Positions 3,383 through 63,240 of a DNA stretch of 64,000 bases are shown here, in pieces. Within the stretch, counting starts at the first letter, position 1, and the number at the start of each line of letters is the position of its first letter. Under the pieces are notes generated by a model, which made no database searches, was not told the origin of the DNA, and saw only the letters and a list, made by a program, of their open reading frames with translations. This stretch comes from a phage: the NCBI GenBank assembly GCA_025823825.1, contig GCA_025823825.1_4720.1. One strand, 5' to 3'. A program made the translations under genes and the position numbers.

Positions 3383-4267
3383 TTACGGTAGGATTTCTGC
3401 GCCCGTCGGGCCTGCCTTACGAGCTTCCAACGCACCAAGGTCGTATTTCAGTGTCAGCGTATCGTTGGTGGTATAAAGGTTGTGGTAAGTCGAAATCAGA
3501 TCGGTAACCTGCGCGCCGACGATTTCGTTCATGTCGAAGGTAGAACCTTGACCATCATCAGCACGAACGATTTTATCGCCAGCAGAGACCATCCCAATTT
3601 CAGAAATAACCGCGTACTCTTCACCACCTTCTGTGAGTTTAGCCACATTGAGATATTCGTTAATATCCCATGGCGTCCAAACCAAAGAGACTTTACAGCT
3701 GTAGTCGTAGTACTCCCCGGTCGCTACCAGAATTCCGGTTGTTGGAATATCCGGTCGGGCGGGGTTGAGGTTCGCGTCGGTTGGATGCCATTCGATGGTC
3801 TGAGCGACGCCGTCGACGTATTTGGTATAACGCATGGAGCGGACAACGTTATCGAAATCGATGCGACGACCGTAATAACAGATATACTTTTTACCGCTTT
3901 CCAGTGTCTCAATACGACGTAACCCAAATTTAGCGCGTTCGTCTGTGGTTAAGTCGTTACCAACCTCACGCATTACGAAAGGTTTGATTTTCCACGGTGA
4001 AAGATCGCTTGCTTCGTGAGCGATCGGCATCGAGGAAGGGATACCGTTAGCGTTGCGGATGAATTCGTGACCCTGGTTGCCGATACAGAAGTAACGTACA
4101 GCAGGATTACCCTCGGGGTAAACCTTTGATTGAATCTGAAGCTTTTCATTCAAGGTGCTGTGTTCTTCCCACGCATGAGGAAGACCGAGCGTAAGGTTAG
4201 TTTGTACTTGACCGCCGATAATCGTACGGACGATACGATCGGTAGCACGGATTTGTGTAGAAGCCAT
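3383..4267 (-). CDS. hypothetical protein (294 aa)
   Basis: Long ORF in tight tandem with neighbours. Confidence 0.65.
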   Translation of the reverse strand: MASTQIRATDRIVRTIIGGQVQTNLTLGLPHAWEEHSTLNEKLQIQSKVYPEGNPAVRYFCIGNQGHEFIRNANGIPSSMPIAHEASDLSPWKIKPFVMREVGNDLTTDERAKFGLRRIETLESGKKYICYYGRRIDFDNVVRSMRYTKYVDGVAQTIEWHPTDANLNPARPDIPTTGILVATGEYYDYSCKVSLVWTPWDINEYLNVAKLTEGGEEYAVISEIGMVSAGDKIVRADDGQGSTFDMNEIVGAQVTDLISTYHNLYTTNDTLTLKYDLGALEARKAGPTGAEILP

Positions 4268-4283
4268 GTCTTTTCCTATTTAA

Positions 4284-5135
4284 TCAGTTATATTGCATCA
4301 ACAGGATACCGCCGTAGTTCGTGCAGTAATCTTGGCTAAGCGTAACGATAACAGCGTTAGCGAACGCGGGGTTAACAGGATAACCCTGTGCGATAAGTTC
4401 TGTTGTTTTACCGGTTGCAAGCACGGTGGCTCCGTAAAGGTTGTTTTCGTCTTCACGGCCGTTATAAACCCACGGGGTTGGTGCAACGTTGTTGAATAAG
4501 CTAACCAATGCGCTTAAGTTACCACCAACTTTTAACCCAGCAAGATCGGAACGGATCGCTGTACAGTCTATAGCGTAACTGTAGACCAGTGCCTGGATAC
4601 GATTTGCGGTGTAGTACGGGAAATTGAGACCGGTCATCACCGTGGTCTTCATCATCCCCGCAATATCGTGGGCACTATCGAGAAGATAGAACGTAACGCT
4701 CCCCGTCCAAGCCAATCCGGTTGTTTTCAATTCTACGGTGTGTGGGAACGGATATTCATCGCCTCGTACAATCGGAGAATCGACGCAGCTATCCTGATCG
4801 ATAACGATACCGTACGTTGATTGAATCAGAGGGATAAGATCGTGTGTCGTTTTAACCCCGGCATCGATAGCAAGCTTCGGTTCCATCCCCAAGAAGAAGT
4901 CTTGAATAGGGATACGATCGTACCACACGTAGCTGCTTTCACGGTATTGTGCTGGTGTTACTGTTGCCGAAGGCGATACTTTCGCGCGGGTGTTCCGTTT
5001 ATACGCATGGTTTCCGTTTTCAGCAACATCCGTGATATCAAGTGCATCGAAGTTAAAGTCGAAGTCAGGATTGGCTGCCTGAATAAGTTCAGCGACCAGT
5101 ACTTTAGGACTTTTGTTTAACAATTTCTGACTCAT
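4284..5135 (-). CDS. virion/fibre-associated protein, paralog family F member 2
   Basis: 283-aa ORF; shares AYKRNT, LAWTGSV and C-terminal motifs with 2462-3367 and 5146-6081. Confidence 0.65.
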   Translation of the reverse strand: MSQKLLNKSPKVLVAELIQAANPDFDFNFDALDITDVAENGNHAYKRNTRAKVSPSATVTPAQYRESSYVWYDRIPIQDFFLGMEPKLAIDAGVKTTHDLIPLIQSTYGIVIDQDSCVDSPIVRGDEYPFPHTVELKTTGLAWTGSVTFYLLDSAHDIAGMMKTTVMTGLNFPYYTANRIQALVYSYAIDCTAIRSDLAGLKVGGNLSALVSLFNNVAPTPWVYNGREDENNLYGATVLATGKTTELIAQGYPVNPAFANAVIVTLSQDYCTNYGGILLMQYN

Positions 5136-16340: not shown

Positions 16341-17783
16341 TTACTTTTTCGATGACGCCTTCTCAAGAATCTTGAAAAAGGTCATACCTATACCGACAAC
16401 AGCCGCGGTTATGCTTGCAGCGGCTTTCCAAACATCGACGTTACGTTGACGTCGCGCTTCTTCCGCTTCACGTTGTCTTTTTGCCTCTTCATCACGTCGA
16501 CGTATCTCAGCAGCAAACTCGTCGTGCTTACGTTTGGATTCTTCGTCTCGACGACGAAGTTCAGCGACGAATTCTTCATGTTTGCGTTTAGCCTCGTCAT
16601 CACGACGTTTTAAATCAGCTTGATAATCTTCATGTATTTGTCTACGTAGATCATCTTGACGTTTCATTTCGGCTTGGTGTTGTTCCATCCTACGTTTTTG
16701 TTCGTCTTTAAGCTGATCGAGTTCGGCTTTATGTTGTTCATCACGCAGCTTTGCATCAGCGCGATGCGCCTCATGCATCTGTGCGATAACTGCCTTGTGT
16801 TCATCCGCCATACGTCGCATTTCAGCCATCACCCCTTTAAGGGTTTCTTCTGATGCCTTACGTTCGTAGCTACGCTGGTCGAAATCATTTTTGTAGGCTT
16901 CTTTTTGGATGGGGTCGCGCCAATGCAATGCCGACTCACGTGTCGGAAAAACATTGTACTTCCACATCTCTTTTTCCAAATCTTCGACCGGTACGAAGAT
17001 GGAGTCATTATTCCCGAAGGTAACCAACATACCTGGCGCGCCTGCTCCATTCGTTGGTTTTATTTCGAACGCTTTCCCCAACACGTTAACCCATAAGCTA
17101 TACGGATTATGAAAGTCGGGCGGCGTCCAATGGATAGTGAGTTGTGTTCCGAGAATCCGGAAACCCTCTGTTTTTCCCGTCAAGCTCCGCGCGCACGTTG
17201 CGATGTAGGGGTGATCAATCCCTTTCGTAACGTGGTCTGCGCTTTTGTATTCTCCTTTAACTTTTACGATTGCCACGTTGATTTGCGCGACATAAGCAGG
17301 TTGATTAAAGTTCAACGTGTTGAGGTCAATTTGACATATTTCATCCAGCGTATCGTACCAGTCTTGCTGGTCTAATAGACGCGGCATTTTCTCTGTGTTA
17401 ACAATACGACGGATATGCGGTTTCCTTATCGCATAACCTGTGCCGTTTTTAACACGGAGTATATCCCGACGTCTACCCGCGTAGACGAAGTTTCTGAATG
17501 CACCATTCGCATTAGATACGTCATGGCTGTCAACTATTACAGGACTACGAAATTTTGAACGTCGTACGATCCTGAATGTATTGCCGTCCTCAACCCTACC
17601 AGGAATGTACTGGAACATATTGTCGGAGGTGATAACCAACACGGTATGGCCAGATTCGTTAATACATGCCCATCCTAATTCCAGGTCATATAACGGTTCA
17701 GCATAACCGTCAATGCGATAAGCGTGCGTACCATCCCACGGTTCGAACGCGGTATCACATATTGGCATGGAGGGCATCGTCAA
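16341..17783 (-). CDS. hypothetical protein with E/R/K-rich charged helical repeats and C-terminal hydrophobic anchor
   Basis: ORF; probable ATG start at 17777 with GGAGG upstream; repeats RRRDEE(A/S)KRKH(E/D)EF(V/A)AE(L/I); C-terminal AAASITAAVVGIGMTFF. Confidence 0.7.
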   Translation of the reverse strand: MTMPSMPICDTAFEPWDGTHAYRIDGYAEPLYDLELGWACINESGHTVLVITSDNMFQYIPGRVEDGNTFRIVRRSKFRSPVIVDSHDVSNANGAFRNFVYAGRRRDILRVKNGTGYAIRKPHIRRIVNTEKMPRLLDQQDWYDTLDEICQIDLNTLNFNQPAYVAQINVAIVKVKGEYKSADHVTKGIDHPYIATCARSLTGKTEGFRILGTQLTIHWTPPDFHNPYSLWVNVLGKAFEIKPTNGAGAPGMLVTFGNNDSIFVPVEDLEKEMWKYNVFPTRESALHWRDPIQKEAYKNDFDQRSYERKASEETLKGVMAEMRRMADEHKAVIAQMHEAHRADAKLRDEQHKAELDQLKDEQKRRMEQHQAEMKRQDDLRRQIHEDYQADLKRRDDEAKRKHEEFVAELRRRDEESKRKHDEFAAEIRRRDEEAKRQREAEEARRQRNVDVWKAAASITAAVVGIGMTFFKILEKASSKK

Positions 17784-17978
17784 CCTCCATCAGATTGAAA
17801 ACTATCACGCATAATACATTTCCCTTTTTCTTGTTCTTATCAAGCCGACAGCCGACGGTTTCAGCATCGTTCCTAGCGCGAGAACGACCTTACGTGTTGT
17901 CTATGCCTTATTCATCGCAGGCGTCTGTCACCTAGGTAATGTAAGCGTCAAATTTTTTCTATTCGCAACGATAAACGG

Positions 17979-18026
17979 CATAGAAACCTCCCCCAACCCT
18001 TACGGGCTGAGGGAGGCTGACTTATG
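17979..18026. terminator. hairpin element, copy 3 (3' of the capsid-candidate gene)
   Basis: cata-gaaaCCTCCCcc-aaccc-ttac-ggg-ctga-GGGAGG-ctgacttatg; irregular inner loop. Confidence 0.5.
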
Positions 18027-22781: not shown

Positions 22782-22819
22782 CCCTCCTCCAACCCGTAAG
22801 GGAAGGAGGAGGGGTTATG
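22782..22819. terminator. hairpin element, copy 4 (convergent)
   Basis: CCCTCCTCC-aaccc-gtaa-gggaa-GGAGGAGGGG-ttatg; A7/T7 run on left flank. Confidence 0.6.
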
Positions 22820-22829
22820 ACCGCTTTGA

Positions 22830-23156
22830 TTAACTTATTGTCGTGAATTCATTAGGTGAAAATTTCCAGCCGTTCTCAGTGAGAAGCGTGTTGAGTTTCG
22901 CTGCAACGATAAGCCATGCATGCATGGCCGTTACATCGTATTGGCGATTCACTCGACGTTGGTTTTCGATATTGATTTGCTCCTGTTCGGTGATGTTTGG
23001 ATAAAGTGCGATAGCGCTAGGTTTACCCAGCGCGCTAGTCATCACCGCCGTACATTCACTGATAATGTTGTTTAAGTGGTAGTTATACACCGTTCCACGC
23101 ATGACGCGATGACGGCATTCGATAATAGCGTCGTAAATGATTTCTCGAGTAATCAT
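22830..23156 (-). CDS. small hypothetical protein (108 aa)
   Basis: ORF immediately downstream of hairpin element; tight spacing with 23163-23564. Confidence 0.5.
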   Translation of the reverse strand: MITREIIYDAIIECRHRVMRGTVYNYHLNNIISECTAVMTSALGKPSAIALYPNITEQEQINIENQRRVNRQYDVTAMHAWLIVAAKLNTLLTENGWKFSPNEFTTIS

Positions 23157-23162
23157 GATAAT

Positions 23163-23564
23163 TTAAAACATACGGTCGTTTTTAGCACGGGCGTCCATTA
23201 CCAGATCGTAGATGCCTGCGGTTCGTAAGCACTCTTCGTAGTAACGATGTGTGCCTTCCTCAGCCATCCACGATAACCCTCGGCTATCCGCAACGATAAC
23301 CAGTTTGTTATTGTTGAACGCACACACCACACGGTAGGTCGCGTTGTTATTCGGATCGCGAGTGATAAGTTCGTAAACGCCGTTAACAGGTTTACTGAAT
23401 TCACCGTTTAACGGGATGAGTTCGGTAGTACCTTCAGCAAACGTTACGTTGATCGGTGATGGATCTTTGGCGATAACAGTATATTCCACATTGTGTTCTT
23501 TACTGGTCATGATACCGAAGTAAGAACTGACAGGGGAACGCGGTACACTAAGAATATTAAACAT
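23163..23564 (-). CDS. small hypothetical protein (133 aa)
   Basis: ORF with ATG start and aagagga RBS. Confidence 0.55.
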   Translation of the reverse strand: MFNILSVPRSPVSSYFGIMTSKEHNVEYTVIAKDPSPINVTFAEGTTELIPLNGEFSKPVNGVYELITRDPNNNATYRVVCAFNNNKLVIVADSRGLSWMAEEGTHRYYEECLRTAGIYDLVMDARAKNDRMF

Positions 23565-23633: not shown

Positions 23634-24203
23634 TTAGACGATGAGCGACCAGGTGGTAAGCACCCCGCTTGCGAATTCGAGCTTAAGACGTTTACCGATA
23701 AGTTGTTGTTGGATCATCTTCTCGGTGATGCGTCGATCTTGCTGAACCGCTTTATCAAACGCTTCTTTTGCTTCAGCTTGGTAGAAGTTCGTTTCTTCGT
23801 TTTCGTCGATCTCTTCGAGCGTATCCTCGTCGATGTCGGCAAGTTTCACTCGACCGTTTTCATCAGGTTGTTCTGCAGGTTCATTGTCATACGGCGTGTC
23901 TTTTGTTGGTGCGACACGATGTTGCAACTCGACCTGTGTTAACATGATCTCCATCTCACCATCGATAGGAATGATTTCATCGGCGCTGCCGTTTTCGGTT
24001 AGCTCTCGACTTTCCAGTAATGTCGTGGTAACAGAGAACACCTCTTCAACAGGAACCTCGTCATCGTCGATGGTGTTAACCGTGTTGCTGGTAACTTCGG
24101 CAACGACCATCAAATCAAATGCGTGAGGGTCACCTGGCATTTTGATGCCTGGAAGTTTGTTGAGGTACCAAGGATCAAGAATCATGATTTCTGGATTAAA
24201 CAT
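23634..24203 (-). CDS. acidic hypothetical protein (189 aa)
   Basis: ORF; Asp/Glu-rich middle region. Confidence 0.55.
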   Translation of the reverse strand: MFNPEIMILDPWYLNKLPGIKMPGDPHAFDLMVVAEVTSNTVNTIDDDEVPVEEVFSVTTTLLESRELTENGSADEIIPIDGEMEIMLTQVELQHRVAPTKDTPYDNEPAEQPDENGRVKLADIDEDTLEEIDENEETNFYQAEAKEAFDKAVQQDRRITEKMIQQQLIGKRLKLEFASGVLTTWSLIV

Positions 24204-24272
24204 CGTATTTTACCTTTCTATGTTAGGTGGATTGCGGATAGAAGAATCAATGCATAGGTTGATCGTTCTTTG

Positions 24273-24719
24273 TTAGAAATTATTGCCGAACTGGTTATGG
24301 TTATATGGTTGGTAGTGTCCGTAATTACCTGGGAAGCCACCATACGGCACAGGCTCCGGTTTAGGGATTTCCATGGTCGGATTTTTGGAATTGATTGCCA
24401 TCACGTAAATTGTTACGGGTGATACCGCGCGATTCATTTCGACGGCCACACGACGGATGTAGCCAACGTATGCTGTTATTGCAGGCATTAGCTTGTCCCC
24501 TTCGGTAGTTATAACGGTACCATCAGAAAGAATCTCGCGAACCGCGCACCATTTACCAAGATGAACGCCTTGCTGCGGCTTTATTCCAGTAGCGATAGAG
24601 AGATAGGTATCGTACGTCGTTTGATGATTCGGATGGCTATAGATAGATTCTGCTTTGGTTTCGTCTTTTCCTAAGTATTCGCCTTGCATGGGGGTAGGAG
24701 TTGATGAAGAATGTGGCAT
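24273..24719 (-). CDS. paralog family C member (148 aa)
   Basis: AAGGAG RBS; shares (Y)xHPxxxTTYDxYL(S/T)I...G(K/E/A)W(C/R)(A/M/I)(V/I)REI...DG(T/R)(V/I)(I/V)T with 24831-25691 and 25745-26545. Confidence 0.65.
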   Translation of the reverse strand: MPHSSSTPTPMQGEYLGKDETKAESIYSHPNHQTTYDTYLSIATGIKPQQGVHLGKWCAVREILSDGTVITTEGDKLMPAITAYVGYIRRVAVEMNRAVSPVTIYVMAINSKNPTMEIPKPEPVPYGGFPGNYGHYQPYNHNQFGNNF

Positions 24720-24830
24720 GTTCGATTCTCCTTCGAGTTGTTTGATCGATTGTTCAACTGGTACTGATTACGATTGGTTGATAACAGTAGAGCTACCGCT
24801 TAAAAACTCTACCGTTGTTTAGATACCGTA

Positions 24831-25691
24831 TTAGGATATACGGTGCATCGTCGGTGCGATTGGTCGTTGACCAAGGTAGAATGTATATCTCGGACGATTC
24901 TTCGGTGCCTGGTTTGGTTGAGGATTCTTCGAATCGATAGCTAACACATAGTACTGAAGTGTGGGGTTGAGTGTCGTCAGATAGTTTCTGATGAACTCCT
25001 TGTTTAAACTTTCAGTCGGGGTTAATACATGTCCGTTGATTGTAACGACGGTGCCGTCGGAACGTATTTCACGAACAATGCACCAGGCCCCCGCACCAAC
25101 ATCGGTAGGGATAGTCGTGCTGGGTGTGATGGTTAGATATTTATCGAAGAATTCGCAGCAAAGAGGATGCTTATAGACCGTTACGGTATCATCTCCTGGC
25201 GAGGTTCTCTCTTTTGTTACAAGATCCATTGCTGGTACGAAAGTGTTGATTTTGGCAACCTTATCGGCATCTTCGTTCGCTTCGATATAAATCTCTGCTT
25301 TACCGTACACGCTCTGAACTAAACGACGTAACTGTTCGTATGTTTTCGGTGAGGTTAGCTGCACCCGACTGAGCAGTTCATCGTACCAAGCTTCGAAGGT
25401 GCTTGTTGGTATCTTAACGTATGCCTTATTCCCGGTTTCATTTTCATCCCGGAAGATAATCGCAACGGTATCAGGCTCGTCAAGAGAGTCCAGGTAAACG
25501 ATGTGCTCGACCAACGCAGAAAATGTCTTACGTCCAATTCCCCCATAGTACGGGATTGCTGAATGAACCAGCCGCCAGTTACATGAAGTTTGGATATGAT
25601 CGAAGGCGTTGATCATGTTTTTACTATAACGAAAAATTTCAGTAAAATATTCTTTACGTTCTTTACTAAGACGTTTGTATATCTTGGTCAT
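24831..25691 (-). CDS. paralog family C member (286 aa)
   Basis: gaggag RBS; conserved C-terminal domain GAWCIVREIRSDGTVVTINGHVLTP...YYVLAIDSKNP. Confidence 0.7.
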   Translation of the reverse strand: MTKIYKRLSKERKEYFTEIFRYSKNMINAFDHIQTSCNWRLVHSAIPYYGGIGRKTFSALVEHIVYLDSLDEPDTVAIIFRDENETGNKAYVKIPTSTFEAWYDELLSRVQLTSPKTYEQLRRLVQSVYGKAEIYIEANEDADKVAKINTFVPAMDLVTKERTSPGDDTVTVYKHPLCCEFFDKYLTITPSTTIPTDVGAGAWCIVREIRSDGTVVTINGHVLTPTESLNKEFIRNYLTTLNPTLQYYVLAIDSKNPQPNQAPKNRPRYTFYLGQRPIAPTMHRIS

Positions 25692-25744
25692 TTTTGTAGC
25701 TCCTCGATTAAAGTAAAGATGAACGCGATCATTTATTATCGCTT

Positions 25745-26545
25745 TTAGTTTTTACCATTCCCCCAGCTAGGTTCTTCGTAGAAATGATGCGGATAACCAG
25801 AGTAGGAACCCATGACACAAGAGGCCGTTTCTTTTCGTGAATCGATGACCAGCGCATAAAACTGTCTGAGGTTCGACAACATAGAGAAATAAGACGACAG
25901 CACTTTTTCGTTTAACGCATCGCACGGTAAGCAGGTGCGACCGCAAAACGTCACAATACGGCCATCAGGATAGATCTCACGAATCATTCGCCATTCACCG
26001 ATGTCGACCGGCGACGGTGTAGATGTACCGCCCGTTATTGTTAAATATCGGTCGTACGTAGTACGGCATTCAGGATGAACGTAAATCGGTTGGGCATCAA
26101 TACTATCGTTTTCTGTTTGATCTTTACTCACGTATACCTCAAGGTAGATTGTTGGTAACCCGGTTAGAACGCCAGTATCACGACGTTTTTTGGTAATCCG
26201 GGGACGGATATTATCGAGCACGCCTTCCAGTTTTTCTGCGACTTCGTCAGCCGGTAATATATACCCGTATGTTGGTTCTGGGTCATCATCGTGGCTAAAT
26301 AAGATACGACAGTCGTTTTTATTAAATTCTATATCTTCAGGTGGGAAGATGATGACGCGAACCGTATGGCGTTCTGCGATATAAAATCCTTCAGGCCCCT
26401 CAGTTTTGGTAAGTGTAAAGGACCAGGATGAATGATCTTCAAGTGACGTGCCTGCCAGGAAAAAGTCCGCCCGAATTGGTGCGTTCCATTTCGCGATCAT
26501 ATTGGCGTGACCAATAACGCCTAATTTTTGATAAATATCTGTCAT
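25745..26545 (-). CDS. paralog family C member (266 aa)
   Basis: gagga RBS; conserved C-terminal domain GEWRMIREIYPDGRIVTFCGRTCLP...FYALVIDSRKE; TATATTAC-containing element upstream. Confidence 0.7.
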   Translation of the reverse strand: MTDIYQKLGVIGHANMIAKWNAPIRADFFLAGTSLEDHSSWSFTLTKTEGPEGFYIAERHTVRVIIFPPEDIEFNKNDCRILFSHDDDPEPTYGYILPADEVAEKLEGVLDNIRPRITKKRRDTGVLTGLPTIYLEVYVSKDQTENDSIDAQPIYVHPECRTTYDRYLTITGGTSTPSPVDIGEWRMIREIYPDGRIVTFCGRTCLPCDALNEKVLSSYFSMLSNLRQFYALVIDSRKETASCVMGSYSGYPHHFYEEPSWGNGKN

Positions 26546-26608
26546 GATTGTATCCTCGGTTATTAAGAGAAATTTACAGTGATAACAGTAACCGTTGTCA
26601 TCACCTTA

Positions 26609-26632
26609 GTAATATAGCCATGAAATAAACTG
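26609..26632 (-). promoter_or_regulatory. conserved upstream element with TATATTAC (candidate phage early/middle promoter) for 25745-26545
   Basis: Minus strand reads CAGTTTATTTCATGGCTATATTAC; near-identical 24-nt element at 63139-63162. Confidence 0.45.
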
Positions 26633-26652
26633 GAGTAACGCGCTTAAGACAG

Positions 26653-26697
26653 CATAGAACCCTCTCCCAACCCATAAGGGAAGGGAGAGGGAATATT
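26653..26697. terminator. hairpin element, copy 5 (tandem minus-strand genes)
   Basis: cata-gaaCCCTCTCCC-aaccc-ataa-gggaa-GGGAGAGGG-aatatt; stop codon of 26696 gene in right flank. Confidence 0.6.
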
Positions 26698-28063
26698 AAA
26701 CGGTTGGACGAACGGTGTTGTCTTTTTCTGGTGCAAGCCATAACGTGACCGTACCATGACATGTCCACTGTGGTTCACGTACAGAAGAACCTGCCATTGT
26801 AACAGCGCAATCGGTACGCATGATAACCCCGTATGCTTCGCAGAGATTGTTATCCTGCATCCACACAACTTTAGCAGGCATGCCGGGATACAACATATCC
26901 ATGTTTGCGTACTCCCACACCAACTGCATTGTCCTGCCGCGTAATCCAGCAGTATTACTTAATTCACGCCATCGGTTATCGGTTACGCGTCCCATCCCTT
27001 TCGCCACCTTCACGTTATCGCTACGTTCTTCAGTTACGTACTCGCTAACGTTTACGGTACGACTGATTATTGTATCGCCCCCTTTTGATAATGTCATTCC
27101 CTGACTCATCTGACTTGCCGAAACAAAACGCCCACCCGCATTACCTAACAACGAAGCCGCGTTATTGATGTCGCTTACCGACGCCCCTCTCGTACAGGCG
27201 ATTTCCACGTATTTGTCACGATTGATCCAGGTCTTGTCCATACCCGGAAACATATCGGCAGGATAGTTGTAAAAGATAGCCGTACGGCGACCATCAGAGA
27301 AACGGGTTTCGTCGTAGAGAGGATAAATATACAGATACGGGGATTGATAATAACAACCGACGTCCGCTGAATAAATACCGACCTGGTTCTGGATTTTGTC
27401 TACGAGATCCATTGCGTTGGTGCCATGCGGAAGAATAAGCAACTTGAACAGGTTGTCGTTATTCGGTGCAACAATGTCTACACCCTGCATTTTGAATCCG
27501 GTGTCAGCTTCGACCGCAGAAAGTATCTTGCTGAATTCGAGTCGTAACACATCCAGAACTTTCGACCCAGTATAGTTTTCACCGGTTTCTGATTGCATGA
27601 AGCTTTCAAGAACAGGATCGAACAGTTGAAATTGAAGATCGACCATTTGTTCGTAGTCTTTCTTCGAAGAATCGGTTGCGGTACGTTCGTCGTTAGCAGA
27701 CATACGACTGTCTACGGTTGTTAAACAAACCGCTCGGTAGACGTAAGCTTGTGCAGCATCGTCTACGGTTTGGCGTTGTCCGCGCATCAGGCTGTACGCT
27801 TGCACGATGATGCGCATTTTAAGTTGTTGTTGGTACGGTAAGATGTATTTTCCGTAACTGCCTGGCGGGAACTTTACAGAGATATAAAGTTCATCTCCTG
27901 CGTTACGTTCATAGTCTCGATACGTGTGGACTTGAGTCACTAAAGGAACAGACACCGTCATTGACGGCGTGATTAATTCCGCGGTGACTTTATACGCAAC
28001 AGCAACTGCTTCCTGCGCAAATGTACCGATATACCGTCCTAACGGCGTCTGTTTGTAATCCAT
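26696..28063 (-). CDS. hypothetical virion-type protein (455 aa)
   Basis: Long ORF, first gene of a five-gene run with overlapping/abutting stops and starts (26696-31912). Confidence 0.75.
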   Translation of the reverse strand: MDYKQTPLGRYIGTFAQEAVAVAYKVTAELITPSMTVSVPLVTQVHTYRDYERNAGDELYISVKFPPGSYGKYILPYQQQLKMRIIVQAYSLMRGQRQTVDDAAQAYVYRAVCLTTVDSRMSANDERTATDSSKKDYEQMVDLQFQLFDPVLESFMQSETGENYTGSKVLDVLRLEFSKILSAVEADTGFKMQGVDIVAPNNDNLFKLLILPHGTNAMDLVDKIQNQVGIYSADVGCYYQSPYLYIYPLYDETRFSDGRRTAIFYNYPADMFPGMDKTWINRDKYVEIACTRGASVSDINNAASLLGNAGGRFVSASQMSQGMTLSKGGDTIISRTVNVSEYVTEERSDNVKVAKGMGRVTDNRWRELSNTAGLRGRTMQLVWEYANMDMLYPGMPAKVVWMQDNNLCEAYGVIMRTDCAVTMAGSSVREPQWTCHGTVTLWLAPEKDNTVRPTV

Positions 28064-48878: not shown

Positions 48879-48921
48879 CATAACCCTCCTCCAACCCGTA
48901 AGGGAAGGAGGAGGGAATATG
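48879..48921. terminator. hairpin element, copy 9 (convergent)
   Basis: cata-aCCCTCCTCC-aaccc-gtaa-gggaa-GGAGGAGGG-aatatg; right flank aatatgctgttat identical to copy 1. Confidence 0.6.
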
Positions 48922-48924
48922 CTG

Positions 48925-51717
48925 TTATCTTACGTTATTGCTATTCTGTTGTTCACTGAACCAACCATACACCTTGAGATCGGTACCGTATTTCAATGCG
49001 ATATACGCATTCAGCGCAGCACAGAACAAAGACGCGAATGCCCATATCAGCGAAGGATCAACATCTTCCGTTACCACTGGGAGAGTATTATCCGGTTCCC
49101 ATGATGGTGAACTGTCCATGAACGTCGCGTACCATCCCCGCCGTTGTTCTTCGGTGGTAAAGTCGCTGTGGGGTTCCAATGCTTCTTTTGCCAGACGTCG
49201 ATATTCGAACATATGCGTTGCTAAAGCCGACGAGTTACCAGATTCGCCTTCATAGTTCGGATCCACCGCATAACAGAGTTCTGTTGAATCTAACAAAGCA
49301 ACCGCCTGTGTGATGCTGTCGGCAGTGCCTGCACCATAGAGCTCGATAGACCGCGAAAGCTTCTCACAGAACGCATTTAACGCGGAAGGATTGGACACCT
49401 GAAGGTCAAGGCCTAATGTCCACGGATAGTTACTGAATACACCCGTAAACCGTGGCATAACACCCAACAGATGCTGTCCGATTACAGCGCGGTTATAAAC
49501 AGCCCTGTTATAGACTTGAAACGCAGCCTCCAAGGCTTGGTTATAATGACGACGAAGTTCGTCACGCGAGTTGCGGAATCTGTTTGCCGCGAGACTCGTG
49601 GCTGCGACGCTACAAACATCGTAATTGGTGGACGAGAGCACAACCTCGTTAAGATCGAACGCTTCCTGTTTCAATGTTCCGCTAACAGCCACCGCTTCGC
49701 TGTTCGCTTTATCGACAACAGTACTCAAAGCGTTGATGTAACGCTTAGCCCGGACTTCCAGCCATTGTGCGATGCCGAGAATATCCACCGCAGCTTTAGC
49801 AAGATCGCGAGCATTCACGATTTCGTTCTTCAACGCCCCTAAATCTTTATTTTCAGGCGATGAGGCTTGTTGACGAATCATGCTGTTCAACATGGTAAGC
49901 AGATTATCCAACTCATGTCCACTGACCTTGTTACGTGCATCGGTAATCGGCCCTTGCAGGAATTTACGGCAACCATCGTTGTATCGAATCAGTTTATCCA
50001 CATCGATAGATTCGTTCGTGGATTCCTTGAACTGATTCTTCAATTCTTCACGGTAATCATGGATTTCACTTGCGAGATTATCGATAGTGATACCGTTATG
50101 TCCAAGAAGAACTTTATTGAAGTTACCTTTCTCGAATGCCAGAGCAAGACCTTCACGAATCTTAGCGAGTTTATCCTGATCGAGTTCACGACCGTTCGAT
50201 AGCTCTTTCACTTCCGAGCTGATTAATGCCGAAACGTTACCCAGATTGTCGGTAACCCCTTTGAACGCTCCCGACCAAATCGTTCCTGCTTCAGCGTATT
50301 TCGCAATGGTCTGAATACCGACGGTGTGCAGCGACGCTAAACGTTTCTTCGTGCCTTCGGTAAGCAGAGCGTCTTTAGCTCGCGTAAGCTGACTGTTATT
50401 AGCTTCTGCCTGCTGAATCGCTGCTTTCGCACTTCCATTACGCCAGCTCTTAACCAGCCAATCAACCAAACGTTTTAGGATATTGACGGTGTATTCCATT
50501 GTCCGCCGTAACGTTTCCCACGCGCTTTCTGCGGTATAGATGCCGTACCCTTCCATCTTCGTTGGGTCAAAGAAACCTTCCTGCATGAGATCAATACGGG
50601 TGTAGCCATCAGCAGCTTCTACTTCCGCCTGGGTTTTATCCCAGAAGTCGTCGCTCTTTGCAGCAACCGCTGTATCTTTAACGTCCAGGATGATCTGACC
50701 AACCGTTTGTGCAAACAGCAAGGCCGCACGTACCGATTGTGCGAACATCCGCTGATATTTGATTCGAACGCATTGCATCTGGGTTAGCAGATTCAGTTGT
50801 GCGATCCCATCCAAGGTGCTATCCTGAGCAAGCCCTTCGGCTTTAGCGATAACCTGTTTTACACGTTCAGCGACATCACCATACTGCTGGCAAACATCCC
50901 GCAGAATACGTGCCGCGAAGACCCCGGTACCGATATAGTTCAATAGGTCTTTTAACGACCATTCGGTCGGACAATCGGTCGGCGCAATAGGGAGTAAGCA
51001 ACCATCACCGTCCATGAATCTCTCTAATGCGCTAATATCCTGATTTTCTACGCTCATGGGGATATCGACATCAGCCGCTTGCAGATCCAGCATCTGTTGT
51101 AGGATGTTGGTATCGGCTTGTACAAGCGTCGCAAGCGCTTGGCTGTGTGCGATTATTGGTAACGCAGGTGACCATACTGCAGCAAGCTTGTCGGCGTGAC
51201 GTTGAATGGCATACCCCATATCCTCGATCACATCGGGATGCTCGATAACCCCCTGAAGCGTTTGATGTAGCTCACCGAGTTGCTGAGACAGATCGACCAT
51301 CATGGTGTTGAAGGTTTCGCCATCCTCTTTGTGGTTGTCCAGACGCTCGAGTTCATGTCGAAGCAATGTGACGAGCTGTCCGTTGCCTTCTTGCTTCAGC
51401 TTGCTTTCCATTAACGTAATGGCTTTATCGACGATCTGACACGCTTCACGAAAACCGGTTGTGGAAGGAAGCTCTGTCCATAACGCCAGCGGTTTACCGT
51501 CAAGGGCTTCCGGCATCGATAACGAAAGCATAGACAGTTGTTGACGTGATACTTGCTGTTCACGGTGTAGTGTTTCTTTTAACGCCAAGAGATCGTCAAG
51601 AAACGCGCCGTTAAGGGTGGTCGTACGCGGTGTTGAATTAATACCGTCAGTTAACGATTCAAGCACCAGGAGACCGTTATCAGCTGAAGAGAGTCCCGCG
51701 GCAAGATATTTGTTCAT
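48925..51717 (-). CDS. large virion/head-type protein (930 aa), probable paralog family D
   Basis: Long ORF; ATG lies in TTTATG right after hairpin with ggag RBS; helical central region resembles family D. Confidence 0.8.
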   Translation of the reverse strand: MNKYLAAGLSSADNGLLVLESLTDGINSTPRTTTLNGAFLDDLLALKETLHREQQVSRQQLSMLSLSMPEALDGKPLALWTELPSTTGFREACQIVDKAITLMESKLKQEGNGQLVTLLRHELERLDNHKEDGETFNTMMVDLSQQLGELHQTLQGVIEHPDVIEDMGYAIQRHADKLAAVWSPALPIIAHSQALATLVQADTNILQQMLDLQAADVDIPMSVENQDISALERFMDGDGCLLPIAPTDCPTEWSLKDLLNYIGTGVFAARILRDVCQQYGDVAERVKQVIAKAEGLAQDSTLDGIAQLNLLTQMQCVRIKYQRMFAQSVRAALLFAQTVGQIILDVKDTAVAAKSDDFWDKTQAEVEAADGYTRIDLMQEGFFDPTKMEGYGIYTAESAWETLRRTMEYTVNILKRLVDWLVKSWRNGSAKAAIQQAEANNSQLTRAKDALLTEGTKKRLASLHTVGIQTIAKYAEAGTIWSGAFKGVTDNLGNVSALISSEVKELSNGRELDQDKLAKIREGLALAFEKGNFNKVLLGHNGITIDNLASEIHDYREELKNQFKESTNESIDVDKLIRYNDGCRKFLQGPITDARNKVSGHELDNLLTMLNSMIRQQASSPENKDLGALKNEIVNARDLAKAAVDILGIAQWLEVRAKRYINALSTVVDKANSEAVAVSGTLKQEAFDLNEVVLSSTNYDVCSVAATSLAANRFRNSRDELRRHYNQALEAAFQVYNRAVYNRAVIGQHLLGVMPRFTGVFSNYPWTLGLDLQVSNPSALNAFCEKLSRSIELYGAGTADSITQAVALLDSTELCYAVDPNYEGESGNSSALATHMFEYRRLAKEALEPHSDFTTEEQRRGWYATFMDSSPSWEPDNTLPVVTEDVDPSLIWAFASLFCAALNAYIALKYGTDLKVYGWFSEQQNSNNVR

Positions 51718-56581: not shown

Positions 56582-58333
56582 ATGAGCGAACAAGAACGAA
56601 AACCTAAGAAGAAACTGCTCGGTATTCAATGTCGACACATCAGTTATAACGAAGCGAACGATGGCAGCAAGAACGACCTCATGATCGCAAAAGAGATCAT
56701 GTTCTTTGATGACAATACGCAAGCGACGAACCTTCGCTTCTTTGAGAATTACAAACGTCCGTTTTGGGTGACGGTAGAGAGTAAACGTAAGAACAAATAT
56801 AAAAAGGAAAGCGAGAAGCTCTCGCATGTGCGTCGCTACGATGTCCGCCAAAGCGAACTGGTTGAAAAGATCAGCTCGGTACTTTATAAAAGACGTGCTG
56901 ACGATAACACCCGTTTACAGCAGCTTGCACGGAGTCCATACCTCTATGGAACGGACGTTAGCGCCAGCTGTTATTTAAAAACCCAGTACAACACAAAATG
57001 GCCGGAATACGTCGATAAATTACCCGCTTCCATTGCCTGTTTCGATATCGAAACCGACGTTGTCCACGGACACGGTAAGATCGTTTGTATGTCTATTACA
57101 ATGGGATACAATGCGATACTTTGCTATACCAAGGACTTCGTTGGTCATATTCCGAATGCCATTGAGAAAACCCATGAGAAGATTCGATATTACCTGGCCG
57201 AACGTCTGAATACCAAAGAAGATCCCCACGCATTCGAAAAATATCAGTACGATGTTCGAATCGTAGAAAGCCCGGCACAAGCGGTCATCCAATGCATGCA
57301 GAAGGTTCACGAATGGCAGCCGGATTATCTCCTTGGCTGGAATATCGCGTTCGATATTCCGCGTATGCTCCAGGCACTGAACGAGGAAGGGTATCGTCCC
57401 GAGGATGTTTTCTCCGATCCTCGCGTACCACCTAAGTATCGTATTGCTCGCTGGGTGCCACCGAAGACCGACAAGGTATCTGCTTCAGGTCGTAAAACCA
57501 ACCTTACCCTCGAGCAAACCTGGCCGATGTTTTATACGATGGCTACGTATCAGGTTATGGATGCGATGTGTGGTTATAAGTTCGTTCGTTTAGGAAGACC
57601 GGATGAAGGACGCTATTCACTCGATGCGGTATTAGAGCGAAATAAATGCCATACGAAATTAAAAGCAATTCCTGGTACAGAAGGGTTCACGGAGCTCGCC
57701 TGGCACGAAGAGATGCAAACGAACCATCAAATCGACTACGGCGTATATAACCTTTGGGATAACCAGGGTATTGAGGCGTTGGACCAGAAAACAAAAGACT
57801 ATTCGATGACCATCCCTATCCGTTTAGCGGCGTCGGATTTGAAAGATTTCAGTTCTAACCCTAAACGTATCTGCGATAAACTTTTCTTCGTTTATCTTAA
57901 CCGTGGGGAAGTCATGGGATGTACCGCTGACGACATGACCCAGGAAGAAGATAAGTGGGTTATCTCACGAGCTGGACATATCGTCACATTACCATGCGAT
58001 CTCATGGCTGACAACGGCATTCATCTCTTCTGGGATATGCCGAACCTGAGAAGTTATATCCGTCTATTCGTTGCAGACCTTGACATTAGCAGTTCATACC
58101 CAAATGGGCAGATCCTGTTGAATCTATCCAGAGCATGTGTTTTTCGTGAGCTCTCGCGCATTGAGGGCGTCTCTGACTATCAATTCAGGAAGTTAGGTAT
58201 CAACTTTATTACCGGAGGTAAAACGAACGCTGTAGACTTCTGTAGAATCGTTTATAAAGCACCGTCGATGTTTGAACTTTTAGAACATTTCGATGCGACG
58301 CGTCCAAAAGAGGAAGCGCGGACCATCGAATGA
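56582..58333 (+). CDS. family B DNA polymerase, N-terminal part (3'-5' exonuclease domain plus polymerase motif A)
   Basis: 583-aa ORF; Exo I CFDIETD, Exo II GWNIAFDIP, Exo III YNLWD, motif A-like DISSSYPNG; no motif B/C before stop. Confidence 0.7.
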   Translation: MSEQERKPKKKLLGIQCRHISYNEANDGSKNDLMIAKEIMFFDDNTQATNLRFFENYKRPFWVTVESKRKNKYKKESEKLSHVRRYDVRQSELVEKISSVLYKRRADDNTRLQQLARSPYLYGTDVSASCYLKTQYNTKWPEYVDKLPASIACFDIETDVVHGHGKIVCMSITMGYNAILCYTKDFVGHIPNAIEKTHEKIRYYLAERLNTKEDPHAFEKYQYDVRIVESPAQAVIQCMQKVHEWQPDYLLGWNIAFDIPRMLQALNEEGYRPEDVFSDPRVPPKYRIARWVPPKTDKVSASGRKTNLTLEQTWPMFYTMATYQVMDAMCGYKFVRLGRPDEGRYSLDAVLERNKCHTKLKAIPGTEGFTELAWHEEMQTNHQIDYGVYNLWDNQGIEALDQKTKDYSMTIPIRLAASDLKDFSSNPKRICDKLFFVYLNRGEVMGCTADDMTQEEDKWVISRAGHIVTLPCDLMADNGIHLFWDMPNLRSYIRLFVADLDISSSYPNGQILLNLSRACVFRELSRIEGVSDYQFRKLGINFITGGKTNAVDFCRIVYKAPSMFELLEHFDATRPKEEARTIE

Positions 58334-58382
58334 ATCAAGTATGTTGATCCTCGTTTAACAAAAAAAGAAAACGCATGCGAAG

Positions 58383-58435
58383 CCCCTCCCCCTGGCGGAA
58401 GCCGGAGGGAGGGGTGGAGGTTTTATGCGTTTTTA
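58383..58435. terminator. hairpin element, copy 11, with T-run on plus strand (terminator of DNA polymerase fragment gene)
   Basis: CCCCTCCCCC-tggcggaagccgg-AGGGAGGGG-tggaggttttatgcgttttt. Confidence 0.6.
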
Positions 58436-58879
58436 ATTATTGCTGCTGGGGTTATCGCCCGGATTATATTCGATGCTGTAGGCGACGTCGCGGTCTGTCG
58501 TATGAACGACAAGCGTGACGGGGAAATCATAATGCGCGGTTTTGTCTCGAACGAACGGGGTAAAGAGATCCGTATAACGTATTAAGTCTTCCCTGGTGTA
58601 ATCGGAAGGGAAGAAGGCATCGATGGTTATTGAATCTTCATAGAGGCGTATGATCAGCTTATCCAGAAGGTTGCTATATTGGTTAGCTGGGGTGACGTTC
58701 AGGTGACAGAAGTCACCGTCTTCTGCTTCTCGCAATACCCATACCGTGGTATCCTGTAACGTATTTTCAAGGATCTCGAAAATGCAGTTTGCTGTAAGTC
58801 TTAGTTTATTTGTTACTTCATGGTTAGGGGAATAATGCTCACGAATGTTTTTCACTGCGTCTTTGATAGAGAAAGTCAT
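58433..58879 (-). CDS. small protein, paralog family A (C-terminal DFPVTLVVH...EYNPGD motif)
   Basis: Track ORF 58433-59110 trimmed to internal ATG at 58879 (MTFSIKD...) because a separate-frame ORF occupies 58893-59186. Confidence 0.55.
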   Translation of the reverse strand: MTFSIKDAVKNIREHYSPNHEVTNKLRLTANCIFEILENTLQDTTVWVLREAEDGDFCHLNVTPANQYSNLLDKLIIRLYEDSITIDAFFPSDYTREDLIRYTDLFTPFVRDKTAHYDFPVTLVVHTTDRDVAYSIEYNPGDNPSSNN

Positions 58880-58892
58880 TGCTGCTGCTCCT

Positions 58893-59186
58893 TTAAAAGA
58901 TATCAAGCCATGAGGATGGAGGAACCAGTTCGCTGGTAAAGTAATCGCCACTGATACCACTATCATCAAAGTGACGTTCGTTGTAACACTGGACGAGCTT
59001 ACCTCCACGTTCTTTCTGATACCATCCAAGGATACTATTAAGACCTCTGTCCACGCATTCGAATGCTTGAGTAATAACATCCTCAACGACGGAGGCTGCC
59101 GTGGGACCATTGAATAGACGATCTAAGCGCTTTTTCATCGATTTGGTTTTCTCGTTCATGATTTCTTTTCCTGTTATAATCGGCAT
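58893..59186 (-). CDS. small hypothetical protein (88-97 aa)
   Basis: ORF; first ATG coincides with hairpin-flank TATG; an alternative start 27 nt in has agga upstream. Confidence 0.45.
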   Translation of the reverse strand: MPIITGKEIMNEKTKSMKKRLDRLFNGPTAASVVEDVITQAFECVDRGLNSILGWYQKERGGKLVQCYNERHFDDSGISGDYFTSELVPPSSWLDIF

Positions 59187-59227
59187 ACAACCCTTCCCCG
59201 GCCTTGACGGCTAGGGAAGGGGCTATG
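59184..59227. terminator. hairpin element, copy 12
   Basis: cata-caaCCCTTCCCC-ggccttgacggcta-GGGAAGGGG-ctatg. Confidence 0.5.
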
Positions 59228-59235
59228 CTACGTTG

Positions 59236-59664
59236 TTATGCTTCGCAATCAGCTGAAGGCGTCGCGCCTTTCTTACCAGCGATACGCCAAATCCGACACG
59301 CTGGGTAATGGTTAACCTCTAGAGAGCAAGGAATGTTATATTTCTCTTCCAGCGCATAAAGACATTTCGTTAGCTGCTCCAGCGCGTTCTCGTCGTGTCG
59401 TAACGCGTGGTGACCTAATCGATGTTGGTCGTTCTTTATATACGCCTCGAAGAGAACATGTTGGCGATGTACGCTGACGTTTACAGCCTCGAGTATAGCT
59501 TGGTCGAGCATACGACTAAAGCACATCAACGAGTCAGATACGTTTTCTCGCTTAACCAGATCGATCATGGCGGGAATATACGAATGGTCGATGTTATCGA
59601 TGACCGCTTTAGCGACGGAATCAGCAACGTTCATCTTTTTAATCCCTAGTTTGTTATTGATCAC
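59236..59664 (-). CDS. small protein, paralog family B member 1 (142 aa)
   Basis: Shares V(A/V)KAV(I/N)DNIDH...MIDL(V/I)K...EEKYNIP(C/F)SLEVN with 59671-60066. Confidence 0.6.
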   Translation of the reverse strand: MINNKLGIKKMNVADSVAKAVIDNIDHSYIPAMIDLVKRENVSDSLMCFSRMLDQAILEAVNVSVHRQHVLFEAYIKNDQHRLGHHALRHDENALEQLTKCLYALEEKYNIPCSLEVNHYPACRIWRIAGKKGATPSADCEA

Positions 59665-59670
59665 GTATAT

Positions 59671-60066
59671 TTACTCTTTGACGTCAGTTGTCGTTTCGAC
59701 ATGCTTCTCACTACTGACGTACCAGAGCAGGTACGTTGGGAAAAGATTGACCTCTAAGCTAAATGGGATATTGTATTTCTCTTCCATTTTGCAGAGATGT
59801 TCTTTAAGTAAATTTCTCGCGTCTCTGTCACCACGAACAGAGTGCCAGTCTAGTTCTTTGTTCTCCTTTACCAGGATCTCTACGATGATACGTTGCTCGT
59901 GAACCTCGGTTTTCACAGCGGCAAGTAAATCGCTGCTATCAAAACGGGTAAAACGAATGTATGAACCAGGTGTTTTTTCTTGTTTAATAATATCGATCAT
60001 GGTAGAAATGCGCGGATGATCGATGTTGTCGTTAACAGCTTTAACGATGGATTCTACAATGCTCAT
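59671..60066 (-). CDS. small protein, paralog family B member 2 (131 aa)
   Basis: Tandem duplicate of 59236-59664 by protein similarity. Confidence 0.6.
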   Translation of the reverse strand: MSIVESIVKAVNDNIDHPRISTMIDIIKQEKTPGSYIRFTRFDSSDLLAAVKTEVHEQRIIVEILVKENKELDWHSVRGDRDARNLLKEHLCKMEEKYNIPFSLEVNLFPTYLLWYVSSEKHVETTTDVKE

Positions 60067-60098
60067 TTTTTATCCTTAATGTTATCGATTTGGAAATA

Positions 60099-60866
60099 TT
60101 ACTTATTTTTGCTTTCTTTATAGACAGTTGTTACCCACGATGGGAAAGCCGGATGGAAACAGAGCGTGAACGTAACTGTCGTATCGTATTTAAACGCACA
60201 GTTCACTAACCGGGTATCTAACGTTTTCCTTAATCCGTCATCATCGTTATCGATGATGGTCATATCTCTTAATATCCCAAGCACGTTAACGCCATCGGGT
60301 GTCTGGGTTACGACAAGTCGTCGTAATGGCCCGCATGTATAGTCACGTACAAATCCTTTCTTCGGGTCCGATACCCTGTTTAACGCATCGTGATTTTTGA
60401 TGAATTCATCGGCGATACAATAGGTTTGTTCCCTTGCTTTATCGGGATCGTATTCTGCTAATAGTTCCTTCGTGTCGAACGTTATCATGTTATTATCATT
60501 CGATTCAGAAGGGAAACATAAAACTAAACGAACAGGGTATTCGTATTGATCTGTTCTTGTTTCGAAAGCATTAGCTAGACACGGCTTGTATGCCTTTGCG
60601 TCGACATTGTCCAAACATGGATGCAATAATGCATGAATAACGGCACCATCGTCAGTTAAACCGAATTCCAGAAATTGTACCCTATCAGTATCCGCTACGG
60701 TTTTCTGAAGGTACGCTTTACCGTTAACAATATCGGTATCCCACATATCGTCGTTTAACGATTCTTCAAACTTATCGAATATATGGTTTACGAGATTGAC
60801 GAGTTCATCAATACGGCACTGTTGGTTGAATTCGATTAATCGTTGAACTTTATCTTTGATAGACAT
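60099..60866 (-). CDS. small protein (255 aa), probable paralog family A
   Basis: ORF; YEYPVRLVLCFPSESNDNNMITFD resembles the family A C-terminal motif. Confidence 0.65.
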   Translation of the reverse strand: MSIKDKVQRLIEFNQQCRIDELVNLVNHIFDKFEESLNDDMWDTDIVNGKAYLQKTVADTDRVQFLEFGLTDDGAVIHALLHPCLDNVDAKAYKPCLANAFETRTDQYEYPVRLVLCFPSESNDNNMITFDTKELLAEYDPDKAREQTYCIADEFIKNHDALNRVSDPKKGFVRDYTCGPLRRLVVTQTPDGVNVLGILRDMTIIDNDDDGLRKTLDTRLVNCAFKYDTTVTFTLCFHPAFPSWVTTVYKESKNK

Positions 60867-60868
60867 GA

Positions 60869-61327
60869 TTACCCATTAGCTCCTTCTTCGTCTGGAGAGT
60901 ATTCCATCGTGTAGAATTCATAACCATCGGAAAACTTGAGTGTTAATGTAATAGGGAAATCGCACGGCATAGCTGATTTCGTAAATGCGTTATTAGCAAC
61001 ATCGGCCAACCGACGTATAGCATCAGTCCCGCTGACGCTGAACGGTAGTTGTATGTTGATAAGGATGCGGTGCTTGTAAACATGGAAAACAACGGTACTG
61101 TCAAGATAAACGCTATGGAACGGTATTGTTGGGATGCGTTCCACGATGGTAAAATACGTCCCGTCATTATCGCTATGTCCCACCGACCAAATATCGGATT
61201 TGCGTAGATTTTGTTTGAGAGATTCGATGCTTCGAGTGACGGTCTCATCAACAGGCGTGACGTAAGTGTCTTTATGCGAGTCGAAAAGTTCGTTGACGTT
61301 AGATTCGAATGAATACATTGTTGCCAT
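60869..61327 (-). CDS. small protein, paralog family A (152 aa)
   Basis: C-terminal CDFPITLTLKFSDGYEFYTMEYSPDEE. Confidence 0.6.
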   Translation of the reverse strand: MATMYSFESNVNELFDSHKDTYVTPVDETVTRSIESLKQNLRKSDIWSVGHSDNDGTYFTIVERIPTIPFHSVYLDSTVVFHVYKHRILINIQLPFSVSGTDAIRRLADVANNAFTKSAMPCDFPITLTLKFSDGYEFYTMEYSPDEEGANG

Positions 61328-63063: not shown

Positions 63064-63138
63064 CTTGACATCCTCTTATATCGGATTGGTTGCAATTGTC
63101 TTAAATAGATGATAAGATATTTTGCTCTTATCACTAAG

Positions 63139-63162
63139 GTAATGTAGTCGTGAAATAAACTG
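63139..63162 (-). promoter_or_regulatory. second copy of conserved upstream element (CATTAC variant) for 62638-63063
   Basis: Plus strand gtaatgtagtcgtgaaataaactg versus gtaatatagccatgaaataaactg at 26609-26632. Confidence 0.45.
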
Positions 63163-63184
63163 CGTTAACAAGAAATAAAAAACA

Positions 63185-63240
63185 GCATAGAAACCTCCTC
63201 CCCCATCCTTCAAGAGGACGGTGGGAAGAGGGAGAGATTA
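63185..63240. terminator. hairpin element, copy 13 (degenerate)
   Basis: cata-gaaaCCTCCTCCCCC-atccttcaagaggacggt-GGGAAGAGGGAGAG-attaaatg; imperfect stem. Confidence 0.4.

Follow-up and report, generated by a model that had tools for sequence, protein, structure and literature searches.

A likely virion RNA polymerase-type early promoter and the variable tandem gene family behind it in a Goslar-like jumbo phage

Jumbo phages that encode their own RNA polymerases each carry a conserved AT-rich motif of about 10 nucleotides (nt) centred near -10 of their early start sites (PMC7598289), and the early promoters of phiKZ combine an extended -10 element with a T-rich element upstream of -19 (PMC8244752). 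Predicted early promoters have been tabulated for several of these phages (PMC7058600 Table 2), including TATATTAC for phiKZ, TTTRARR-BTATATTACDWHDGTG for 201phi2-1 and AWWWWWTTTCARRYAKATATTATYWAAGTG for OBP and N1M2, with the N1M2 row reading AWWWWWTTTCARRYAKATATTATYWAAGTGWA. Here we describe an element of this kind, and the three tandem genes that follow it, in a 64,000-nt stretch of phage DNA (GenBank assembly GCA_025823825.1, contig GCA_025823825.1_4720.1), to which we refer throughout as the window. We have little doubt that the element is an early promoter and that the genes behind it, here called gene 1, gene 2 and gene 3 in order of transcription, open an early operon.

The window is colinear with positions 25326-87560 of Escherichia phage vB_EcoM_Goslar (NC_048170) at 92-98% identity by BLAST, a similarity that marks the source phage as a Goslar-like member of the Chimalliviridae and a close relative of this E. 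coli jumbo phage. Goslar is itself a nucleus-forming jumbo phage of the Chimalliviridae and serves as the E. coli model for phage-nucleus biology. At the locus in question, 2,235 base pairs (bp) of the window that hold the three genes (24306-26540) correspond by BLAST to just 40 bp in Goslar.

Large lytic phages carry variable blocks of paralogous early genes that lie in tandem beside an early promoter, are dispensable in the laboratory and differ in copy number among close relatives. The family described here differs from such blocks in that its variation is modular, with N-domain alleles swapped onto a conserved C-domain, and in that it has no detectable sequence or fold kinship to any described family.

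The probable early promoter and its sites

The element belongs to a motif of about 36 nt with the form A-rich-TTTCACGRCTAYATTACYTAnGTGA. Relaxed matching over the Goslar genome, followed by a position weight matrix (PWM), yielded 12 and then 14 sites. Under the final 14-site matrix the Goslar sites score 29-47, compared with a maximum of 10.6 in Markov-shuffled genomes, and each of the 14, all of them minus-strand, precedes an annotated gene of the same orientation (gp004, gp021, gp040, gp047, gp075, gp105, gp159, gp165, gp175, gp182, gp200, gp214, gp225 and gp246). The last of these is chmA, which encodes the nuclear-shell protein chimallin, and two of the sites reach into the 3' end of the gene before them (gp183 and gp213). 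Exactly three sites are present in the window (Table 1), where no other position scores 7 or more. The Goslar ortholog of the gene 1 promoter, at 49715-49750, heads the early block gp047-gp044, and the site is also kept in six further related loci among the relatives' sequences compared. Together the Goslar and window sites give the consensus TACAAAAAATTTCACGGCTATATTACCTACGTGATA, in which TA-AT-AC-T...TGA is invariant in the first 12 Goslar sites. Core position 3 is either C or T, with TACATTAC in 6 of the 14 Goslar sites; in the window, the core of the gene 1 promoter (26609-26617) reads CTATATTAC and those of the other two sites read CTACATTAC.

A preliminary description of the locus had singled out a 24-mer, which corresponds to 26609-26632 on the minus strand, 63 nt before the ATG of gene 1, and forms the core of the longer motif. 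It had also reported that this 24-mer recurs almost unchanged at 63139-63162 on the same strand, as indeed it does at 21 of 24 positions, with no such match in 100 shuffles; the three mismatches leave a copy that reads TACATTAC and not TATATTAC. Both of these copies stand, and the PWM adds the third site, ahead of the gp040 ortholog, that had been missed. That description rested its match to the phiKZ-type early consensus on the octamer TATATTAC; the bare octamer occurs in the window at chance level (2 found, 1.8 expected), its other copy lying inside gene 1 at 26254-26261 without the flanking motif. The conserved form of the core is TAYATTAC rather than the octamer alone. It is the extended motif that matches the published consensi of phiKZ, 201phi2-1, OBP and N1M2, and this motif stands upstream of genes at 14/14 sites in Goslar and 3/3 in the window rather than at random positions in coding sequence.

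Judged by its sequence, the Goslar-type consensus plainly falls within the class of the published Chimalliviridae early promoters. The Goslar-type motif shares with phiKZ-like early promoters an A/T-rich tract upstream, a TTTCA(C/G)G box, a TAYATTAC core and YTAnGTG downstream, and like them it heads operons in about a dozen copies per genome. In phiKZ the early motif precedes PHIKZ054, just as the Goslar-type motif precedes the chimallin gene, and in both cases the transcription downstream takes place before, and independently of, nucleus formation. The Goslar type differs in allowing C or T at core position 3 and in having a stem-loop that begins at the conserved TGA after most sites. We found neither an earlier written form of the Goslar-type early consensus nor a description of a stem-loop starting at the promoter's conserved TGA in the literature. 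The promoter class as such is already known, and the Goslar-type set is a further member of it.

The evidence on timing comes from RNA-seq of chimallin-knockdown Goslar infections (Armbruster et al., bioRxiv 10.1101/2023.09.20.558163). The knockdown stalls infection at the early vesicle stage, with a transcriptome that resembles 5 min post infection (bioRxiv 10.1101/2023.09.20.558163). Expressed as log2 ratios of ChmA knockdown to control (Armbruster Supplementary Table 2), the values split Goslar genes sharply into those that are unaffected or slightly up (about 0 to +1.3) and those that are down by 3-8 log2 units. All motif sites but one (13 of 14) either mark the 5' edge of an unaffected block or coincide with a step-up within such a block. 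Early blocks that adjoin late genes are gp004-001 (+0.2 to +1.3, versus -2.8 to -7.6 for gp005-013), gp021-014 (+0.8 to +1.4, versus -3.5 to -6.8 for gp022-036) and gp040-037 (+0.7 to +1.2, versus -3.9 to -5.5 for gp041-043). The pattern is the same for gp047-044 (+0.7 to +1.3, versus -3.2 for the upstream gp048), gp075-070 (+1.0 to +1.3, versus -3.6 to -6.1 for gp076-079; gp075 itself +1.1, gp076 -5), gp214 (+1.0, versus -3.9 for gp213), gp225 (+1.0, versus -5 for gp224) and gp200-201 (+0.5, versus -3 to -6 for the flanking genes). The remaining sites mark the head of the long block gp159-106 at gp159, a step from about 0 to +1 at gp105, and steps at gp175 (+0.9, versus -0.4 for gp176), gp246 (+0.9, versus +0.15 for gp247) and gp165 (+0.5, versus about 0 for gp166).

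Because blocks in Goslar start at motif sites in this way, the ortholog of the gene 1 promoter can be said to head an early operon there, whose genes gp046-gp044 stand at +1.0 to +1.3. That the orthologous operon gp047-gp044 stays transcribed under chimallin knockdown supports the early expression that the preliminary description had proposed for the family.

The tandem family and its variation

All three open reading frames (ORFs) of the array are present where the preliminary description had placed them, on the minus strand, and they share a C-terminal domain of about 90 amino acids (aa) with 25 invariant columns and 29-40% identity. The domain motif quoted there holds approximately, in that gene 2 has EFFD in place of TTYD and gene 3 has YLSI and AINS. 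The short N-terminus of gene 3 is not a divergent extension but the product of a deletion: alignment with the related locus L007 shows that 439 bp, including the original start codon and the N-domain, have been lost from the window gene, which has its own Shine-Dalgarno sequence, AAGGAG. AlphaFold2 prediction of gene 1 with the family alignment was moderate in quality (predicted local distance difference test, pLDDT, 66.5 overall), giving an alpha/beta N-domain over residues 1-142, mostly at pLDDT 70-90, with a disordered linker leading to a C-domain modelled at lower confidence and then to an aromatic-rich tail, also disordered.

Searches for relatives of the family led back to phages of the same kind. 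When a hidden Markov model of the C-domain was run against the six-frame ORFs of the window and of the complete Goslar genome, these three ORFs were its sole hits, with E-values of 1e-53 to 1e-59 and the next candidate at 0.03. Scans of the family proteins against Pfam, PHROGs and NCBIfam gave no match at cutoff, a profile search of the PDB nothing significant (best E-value 0.25), fold comparison no significant match, and tblastn of gene 1 against 50,697 phage records no match. An OB-like small beta-barrel was among the folds considered for the C-domain. A word-indexed database search returned 31 homolog clusters, none of them functionally named, with longest carrying contigs of 0.6 to 250 kb; carriers of complete-genome size (236-250 kb) are E. 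coli, Salmonella or Shigella assemblies, together with Logan/ENA assemblies. The homologs fall into gene 1 (257-271 aa), gene 2 (286 aa) and gene 3 types (291-300 aa in full, as in P0018 and P0026-29, or 148-150 aa when truncated) and a fourth type, P0032, and 18 residues are invariant in all subfamilies. When 1.84 billion representative proteins were searched exhaustively with a profile, only four family clusters were recovered, plus NHL-propeller proteins. As far as these searches reach, the family appears to be confined to Goslar-like phages.

The propeller proteins were recovered through a C-domain stretch of 17 residues, (I/V)REIxxDGx(V/I)(V/I)TxxG (about 188-204 in gene 1), that resembles the strand-turn-strand of an NHL blade. 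NHL-repeat beta-propellers (PF01436) have several blades of about 40 aa, whereas here there is one 17-aa stretch, with no array and no propeller, and the family proteins have no match to Pfam NHL. We rejected membership in the propeller family, the 17-aa motif having been summed over repeats in the partner proteins, and we treat the stretch as a putative short convergent motif.

Among relatives the array differs in copy number, in truncations and in the mosaic make-up of its N-domains, which upholds the description of the family as diversified. It encodes proteins of 271, 286 and 291 aa in L007, L008 and L012, of 257 and 300 aa in L009-L011, and of 266, 286 and 148 aa in the window and at least five other independent samples, while Goslar retains a 25-codon in-frame remnant. 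In that remnant the gene 1 promoter and leader are joined to the first 15 codons of a gene 3 type (MTLLIRDPSEYENTR), which run on into its last 10 (YNHNQFGNNF). Goslar gp047 as annotated (49584-49772; L001 6275-6463) is a 62-aa ORF that extends over both promoter and leader; the 25-codon ORF MTLLIRDPSEYENTRYNHNQFGNNF, seemingly a doubly deleted relic of the family, is probably what really remains. A separate observation concerns L009 (E. coli assembly GCA_024682255.1), in which an extra 210-aa gene (4226-4858), a short way ahead of the array, separates the gp048 ortholog from the terminator hairpin.

Two classes of N-domain allele, 33-37% identical to each other, occur within the gene 1 subfamily on C-domains that are 79-97% identical; P0014, for example, shares 37% of its N-domain and 97% of its C-domain residues with gene 1 of the window. 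Divergent N-domains on near-identical C-domains argue for recombination. Between different paralogs the N-domains are barely alignable (hhalign P 0.002-0.04, colinear and marginal). Ortholog dN/dS is 0.15-0.38 in both domains, with values of 0.17-0.24 for gene 1, 0.25-0.27 for gene 2 and 0.24-0.25 for gene 3 against L007 and L012; the comparison of gene 3 with L009 is saturated (dS undefined) and was left out. These ratios indicate selected coding genes, and the 25-codon remnant in Goslar, the loss of the gene 3 N-domain here and the presence of two or three full-length copies in relatives all indicate that the family can be dispensed with. It is thus very likely that we are dealing with a real, selected and dispensable accessory family.

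Possible roles of the locus

On the explanation that we favour, and consider probable as a whole, a vRNAP-type (virion RNA polymerase) early promoter drives a six-gene operon that includes an accessory host-interaction family. The promoter would be read by the virion-packaged multisubunit RNA polymerase of the nucleus-forming jumbo phages (Chimalliviridae), most likely from a start near the conserved GTGA, a few bases past TAYATTAC, a position taken from the published motif, which precedes the start site by about 10 nt. The expected product is an mRNA of about 3.8 kb that opens with a 5' stem-loop, carries six genes (26545 to 22830) and ends at the hairpin past the last of them, so that the three proteins would be made in the host cytoplasm during the first minutes of infection. 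There they would most likely act as accessory host-interaction factors, in host takeover or counter-defence, with the variable N-domain setting target specificity and the C-domain supplying a shared activity or a partner-binding surface. Such a role for the three proteins, taken by itself, is a tentative suggestion.

Several observations weigh against this explanation or narrow it. The gp182 site fits least, as gp182 (+1.3) follows an upstream gp183 that is itself at +0.9 to +1.1 and precedes genes gp181-176 at -0.4 to -1.3. The PWM detects no site at the early step-ups of gp236 and gp183, so the motif is not behind all early starts; these step-ups suggest further, divergent early or middle promoters. 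The timing evidence is drawn from the orthologous Goslar locus, in which the three genes are deleted, and the knockdown RNA-seq speaks to independence from nucleus formation, not to which polymerase initiates. Moreover, the loss of the genes in Goslar without obvious cost would also fit genes of little consequence.

The silence of the RNA-seq on the polymerase, together with the TATATT inside CTATATTAC, a 5/6 match to TATAAT, leaves a reading in which host sigma-70 RNA polymerase uses the element with TATATT as its -10 box. We rejected this reading and regard it as scarcely credible, since a scan of 24100-26800 gave no -35/-10 pair with a 16-18 nt spacer at 26599-26640. The invariant positions (TTAC, YT, TGA and the upstream TTTCA) also reach beyond any -10 hexamer, and other Chimalliviridae have this extended pattern as their published early motif. 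In Goslar the motif occurs just 14 times, each time heading a phage gene and in 13 cases at an early block edge or step-up, and published work has the injected genome enclosed in a vesicle together with the virion polymerase.

Two further alternatives concern the proteins rather than the promoter. The three genes might be passengers, selfish or in decay, that contribute nothing to infection, their tandem likeness being the trace of old duplications that are now being deleted. The absence of genes 1 and 2 and most of gene 3 from Goslar, the lost N-domain of gene 3 in the window, the two-copy arrays of some relatives and the lack of functional annotation in the databases searched would all fit. 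Decay is nevertheless hard to square with frames that are open in all copies, with dN/dS values that are low in both domains, with the 18 residues invariant across all subfamilies, or with a truncated gene 3 that has a strong ribosome-binding site and is unchanged in at least five samples; the genes also sit promoter-proximal in an early operon. We therefore consider this alternative improbable. Alternatively, the family might contribute to the early programme of the phage itself, for example in the vesicle, in nucleus assembly, in mRNA export or as polymerase accessory factors, instead of acting on the host. Core machinery is conserved across the Chimalliviridae, whereas the family is confined to Goslar-like phages; Goslar, which lacks it, infects normally in published work; hypervariable, recombining N-domains would be unusual in a core factor; and no fold match to the family was significant. 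We give this possibility, too, little credence.

If the three proteins do act on the host, a bolder possibility is that they are the founders of a new, structurally unassigned class of modular early effectors of nucleus-forming phages, in which a conserved C-module carries the activity or docks to a fixed partner, exchangeable N-modules retarget it to different host factors or defence systems, and array content (0-3 copies, N-domain alleles a/b and C-domain-only forms) sets host range among E. coli, Salmonella and Shigella. This is speculative, and we would not expect it to hold in full. What can be used now is the Goslar-type early-promoter model of 14 sites and a consensus, which explains 13 early-unit starts or step-ups and agrees with the published RNA-seq. 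Furthermore, a promoter-proximal and highly variable array that has been lost by the laboratory strain Goslar offers candidate determinants of host range or counter-defence in wild Goslar-like phages. Neither the promoter map nor the gene array changes the understanding of these phages, and nothing yet shows a new kind of mechanism.

Hairpins and neighbouring features

Table 1. Coordinates in the window of the promoter sites, operon genes and RNA hairpins
Feature	Position	Strand	Details
Early promoter (virion RNA polymerase type), upstream of gene 1	26599-26634	-	TCCAGTTTATTTCATGGCTATATTACTAAGGTGATG; PWM score 35.0
Second promoter copy	63129-63164	-	Upstream of 62638-63063 (gp075 ortholog); PWM score 45.0
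Third promoter copy	17926-17961	-	Upstream of gp040 ortholog (ORF 16341-17783); PWM score 42.2
GC-rich hairpin	26660-26691	-	CCCTCTCCC..GGGAGAGGG; RNA fold -29.7 kcal/mol, z = -5.9
Leader stem-loop	26580-26603	-	UGAUGACA-8 nt-UGUUAUCA; starts at the motif's conserved TGA
Gene 1	25745-26545	-	266 aa; first in transcription order
Gene 1 layout			N-domain ~1-142, disordered linker, conserved C-domain ~153-237, disordered aromatic-rich tail
Gene 2	24831-25691	-	286 aa; two-domain layout as in gene 1
Stem-loop between genes 2 and 3	24783-24816	-	GGTAGAG..CTCTAC; RNA fold
Gene 3	24273-24719	-	148 aa; C-domain-only derivative of a 291-300-aa gene
gp046 ortholog	23634-24203	-	189 aa
gp045 ortholog	23163-23564	-	133 aa
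gp044 ortholog	22830-23156	-	108 aa
Operon-end hairpin	22783-22813	-	CCCTCCTCCTTCCCTTACGGGTTGGAGGAGG then T-run; directly past the last operon gene

Like the leader of gene 1, that of the second promoter copy (63110-63133) forms an 8-bp/8-nt stem-loop, in the same register but with a different stem (UGAUAAGA/UCUUAUCA). At the 14 Goslar sites, the 38 nt that follow the core have a mean folding energy of -8.3 kcal/mol, compared with -5.5 kcal/mol for random genomic 38-mers (bootstrap P = 0.00085; Mann-Whitney P = 0.003). Most early leaders open with a stem-loop whose sequence differs from site to site while its pairing is kept; this hairpin may have a stabilising or regulatory function.

Upstream of the promoter, the GC-rich hairpin is followed directly by TTCTATGCTGT at 26649-26659, and a related hairpin with the identical 11-mer (63182-63192) precedes the second promoter copy. 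Among relatives the spacing between hairpin and promoter shifts by indels, on which ground we rejected the hairpin and TATGCTGT as part of the promoter and read the hairpin as a separate element, the putative terminator of the preceding late operon (gp048 ortholog, 26696-28063). Comparison with the phiKZ-type late promoter (T-3 A T G+1) places a TATG inside TTCTATGCTGT at both conserved copies; the tetramer is common, and 193 combinations of hairpin and TATG pass a permissive scan of Goslar.

Within and beyond the array, the spacer between genes 2 and 3 of L013 holds a hairpin similar to that in the window, and the gp046, gp045 and gp044 orthologs that complete the operon have no Pfam match at the curated cutoff. 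The hairpin past the gp044 ortholog is likely to be the end of the early operon; the gene after it, a helicase, lies on the opposite strand.

The operon-end hairpin is one of several nearly identical intergenic copies of a GC-rich hairpin of about 31 nt, CCCTCCTCCTTCCCT(T/G)A(C/T)GGGTTGGAGGAGG. Its copies in the window lie on the minus strand at 2422-2452, 22783-22813 and 48885-48915, and also at 17987-18020, and those in Goslar at 12-24, 27747, 48108, 71991, 134586 and 237264. Directly after most copies comes (G)TTATG.. or TTCTATGC... The repeated hairpin looks like a conserved terminator cassette, and with the adjacent TATG, the phiKZ late-promoter tetramer, it could form a terminator/re-initiation unit.

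Homology between the two phages is interrupted a second time, at 58077-60883 of the window against 81185-84447 of Goslar. The window is without the NUMOD1/HNH homing-endonuclease gene gp069 of Goslar, and its sequence differs around gp070-071. Finally, one hairpin-containing sequence stands at both ends of the deposited linear Goslar record (1-45 and 237250-237307), a repetition that is consistent with a terminal overlap of the assembly.

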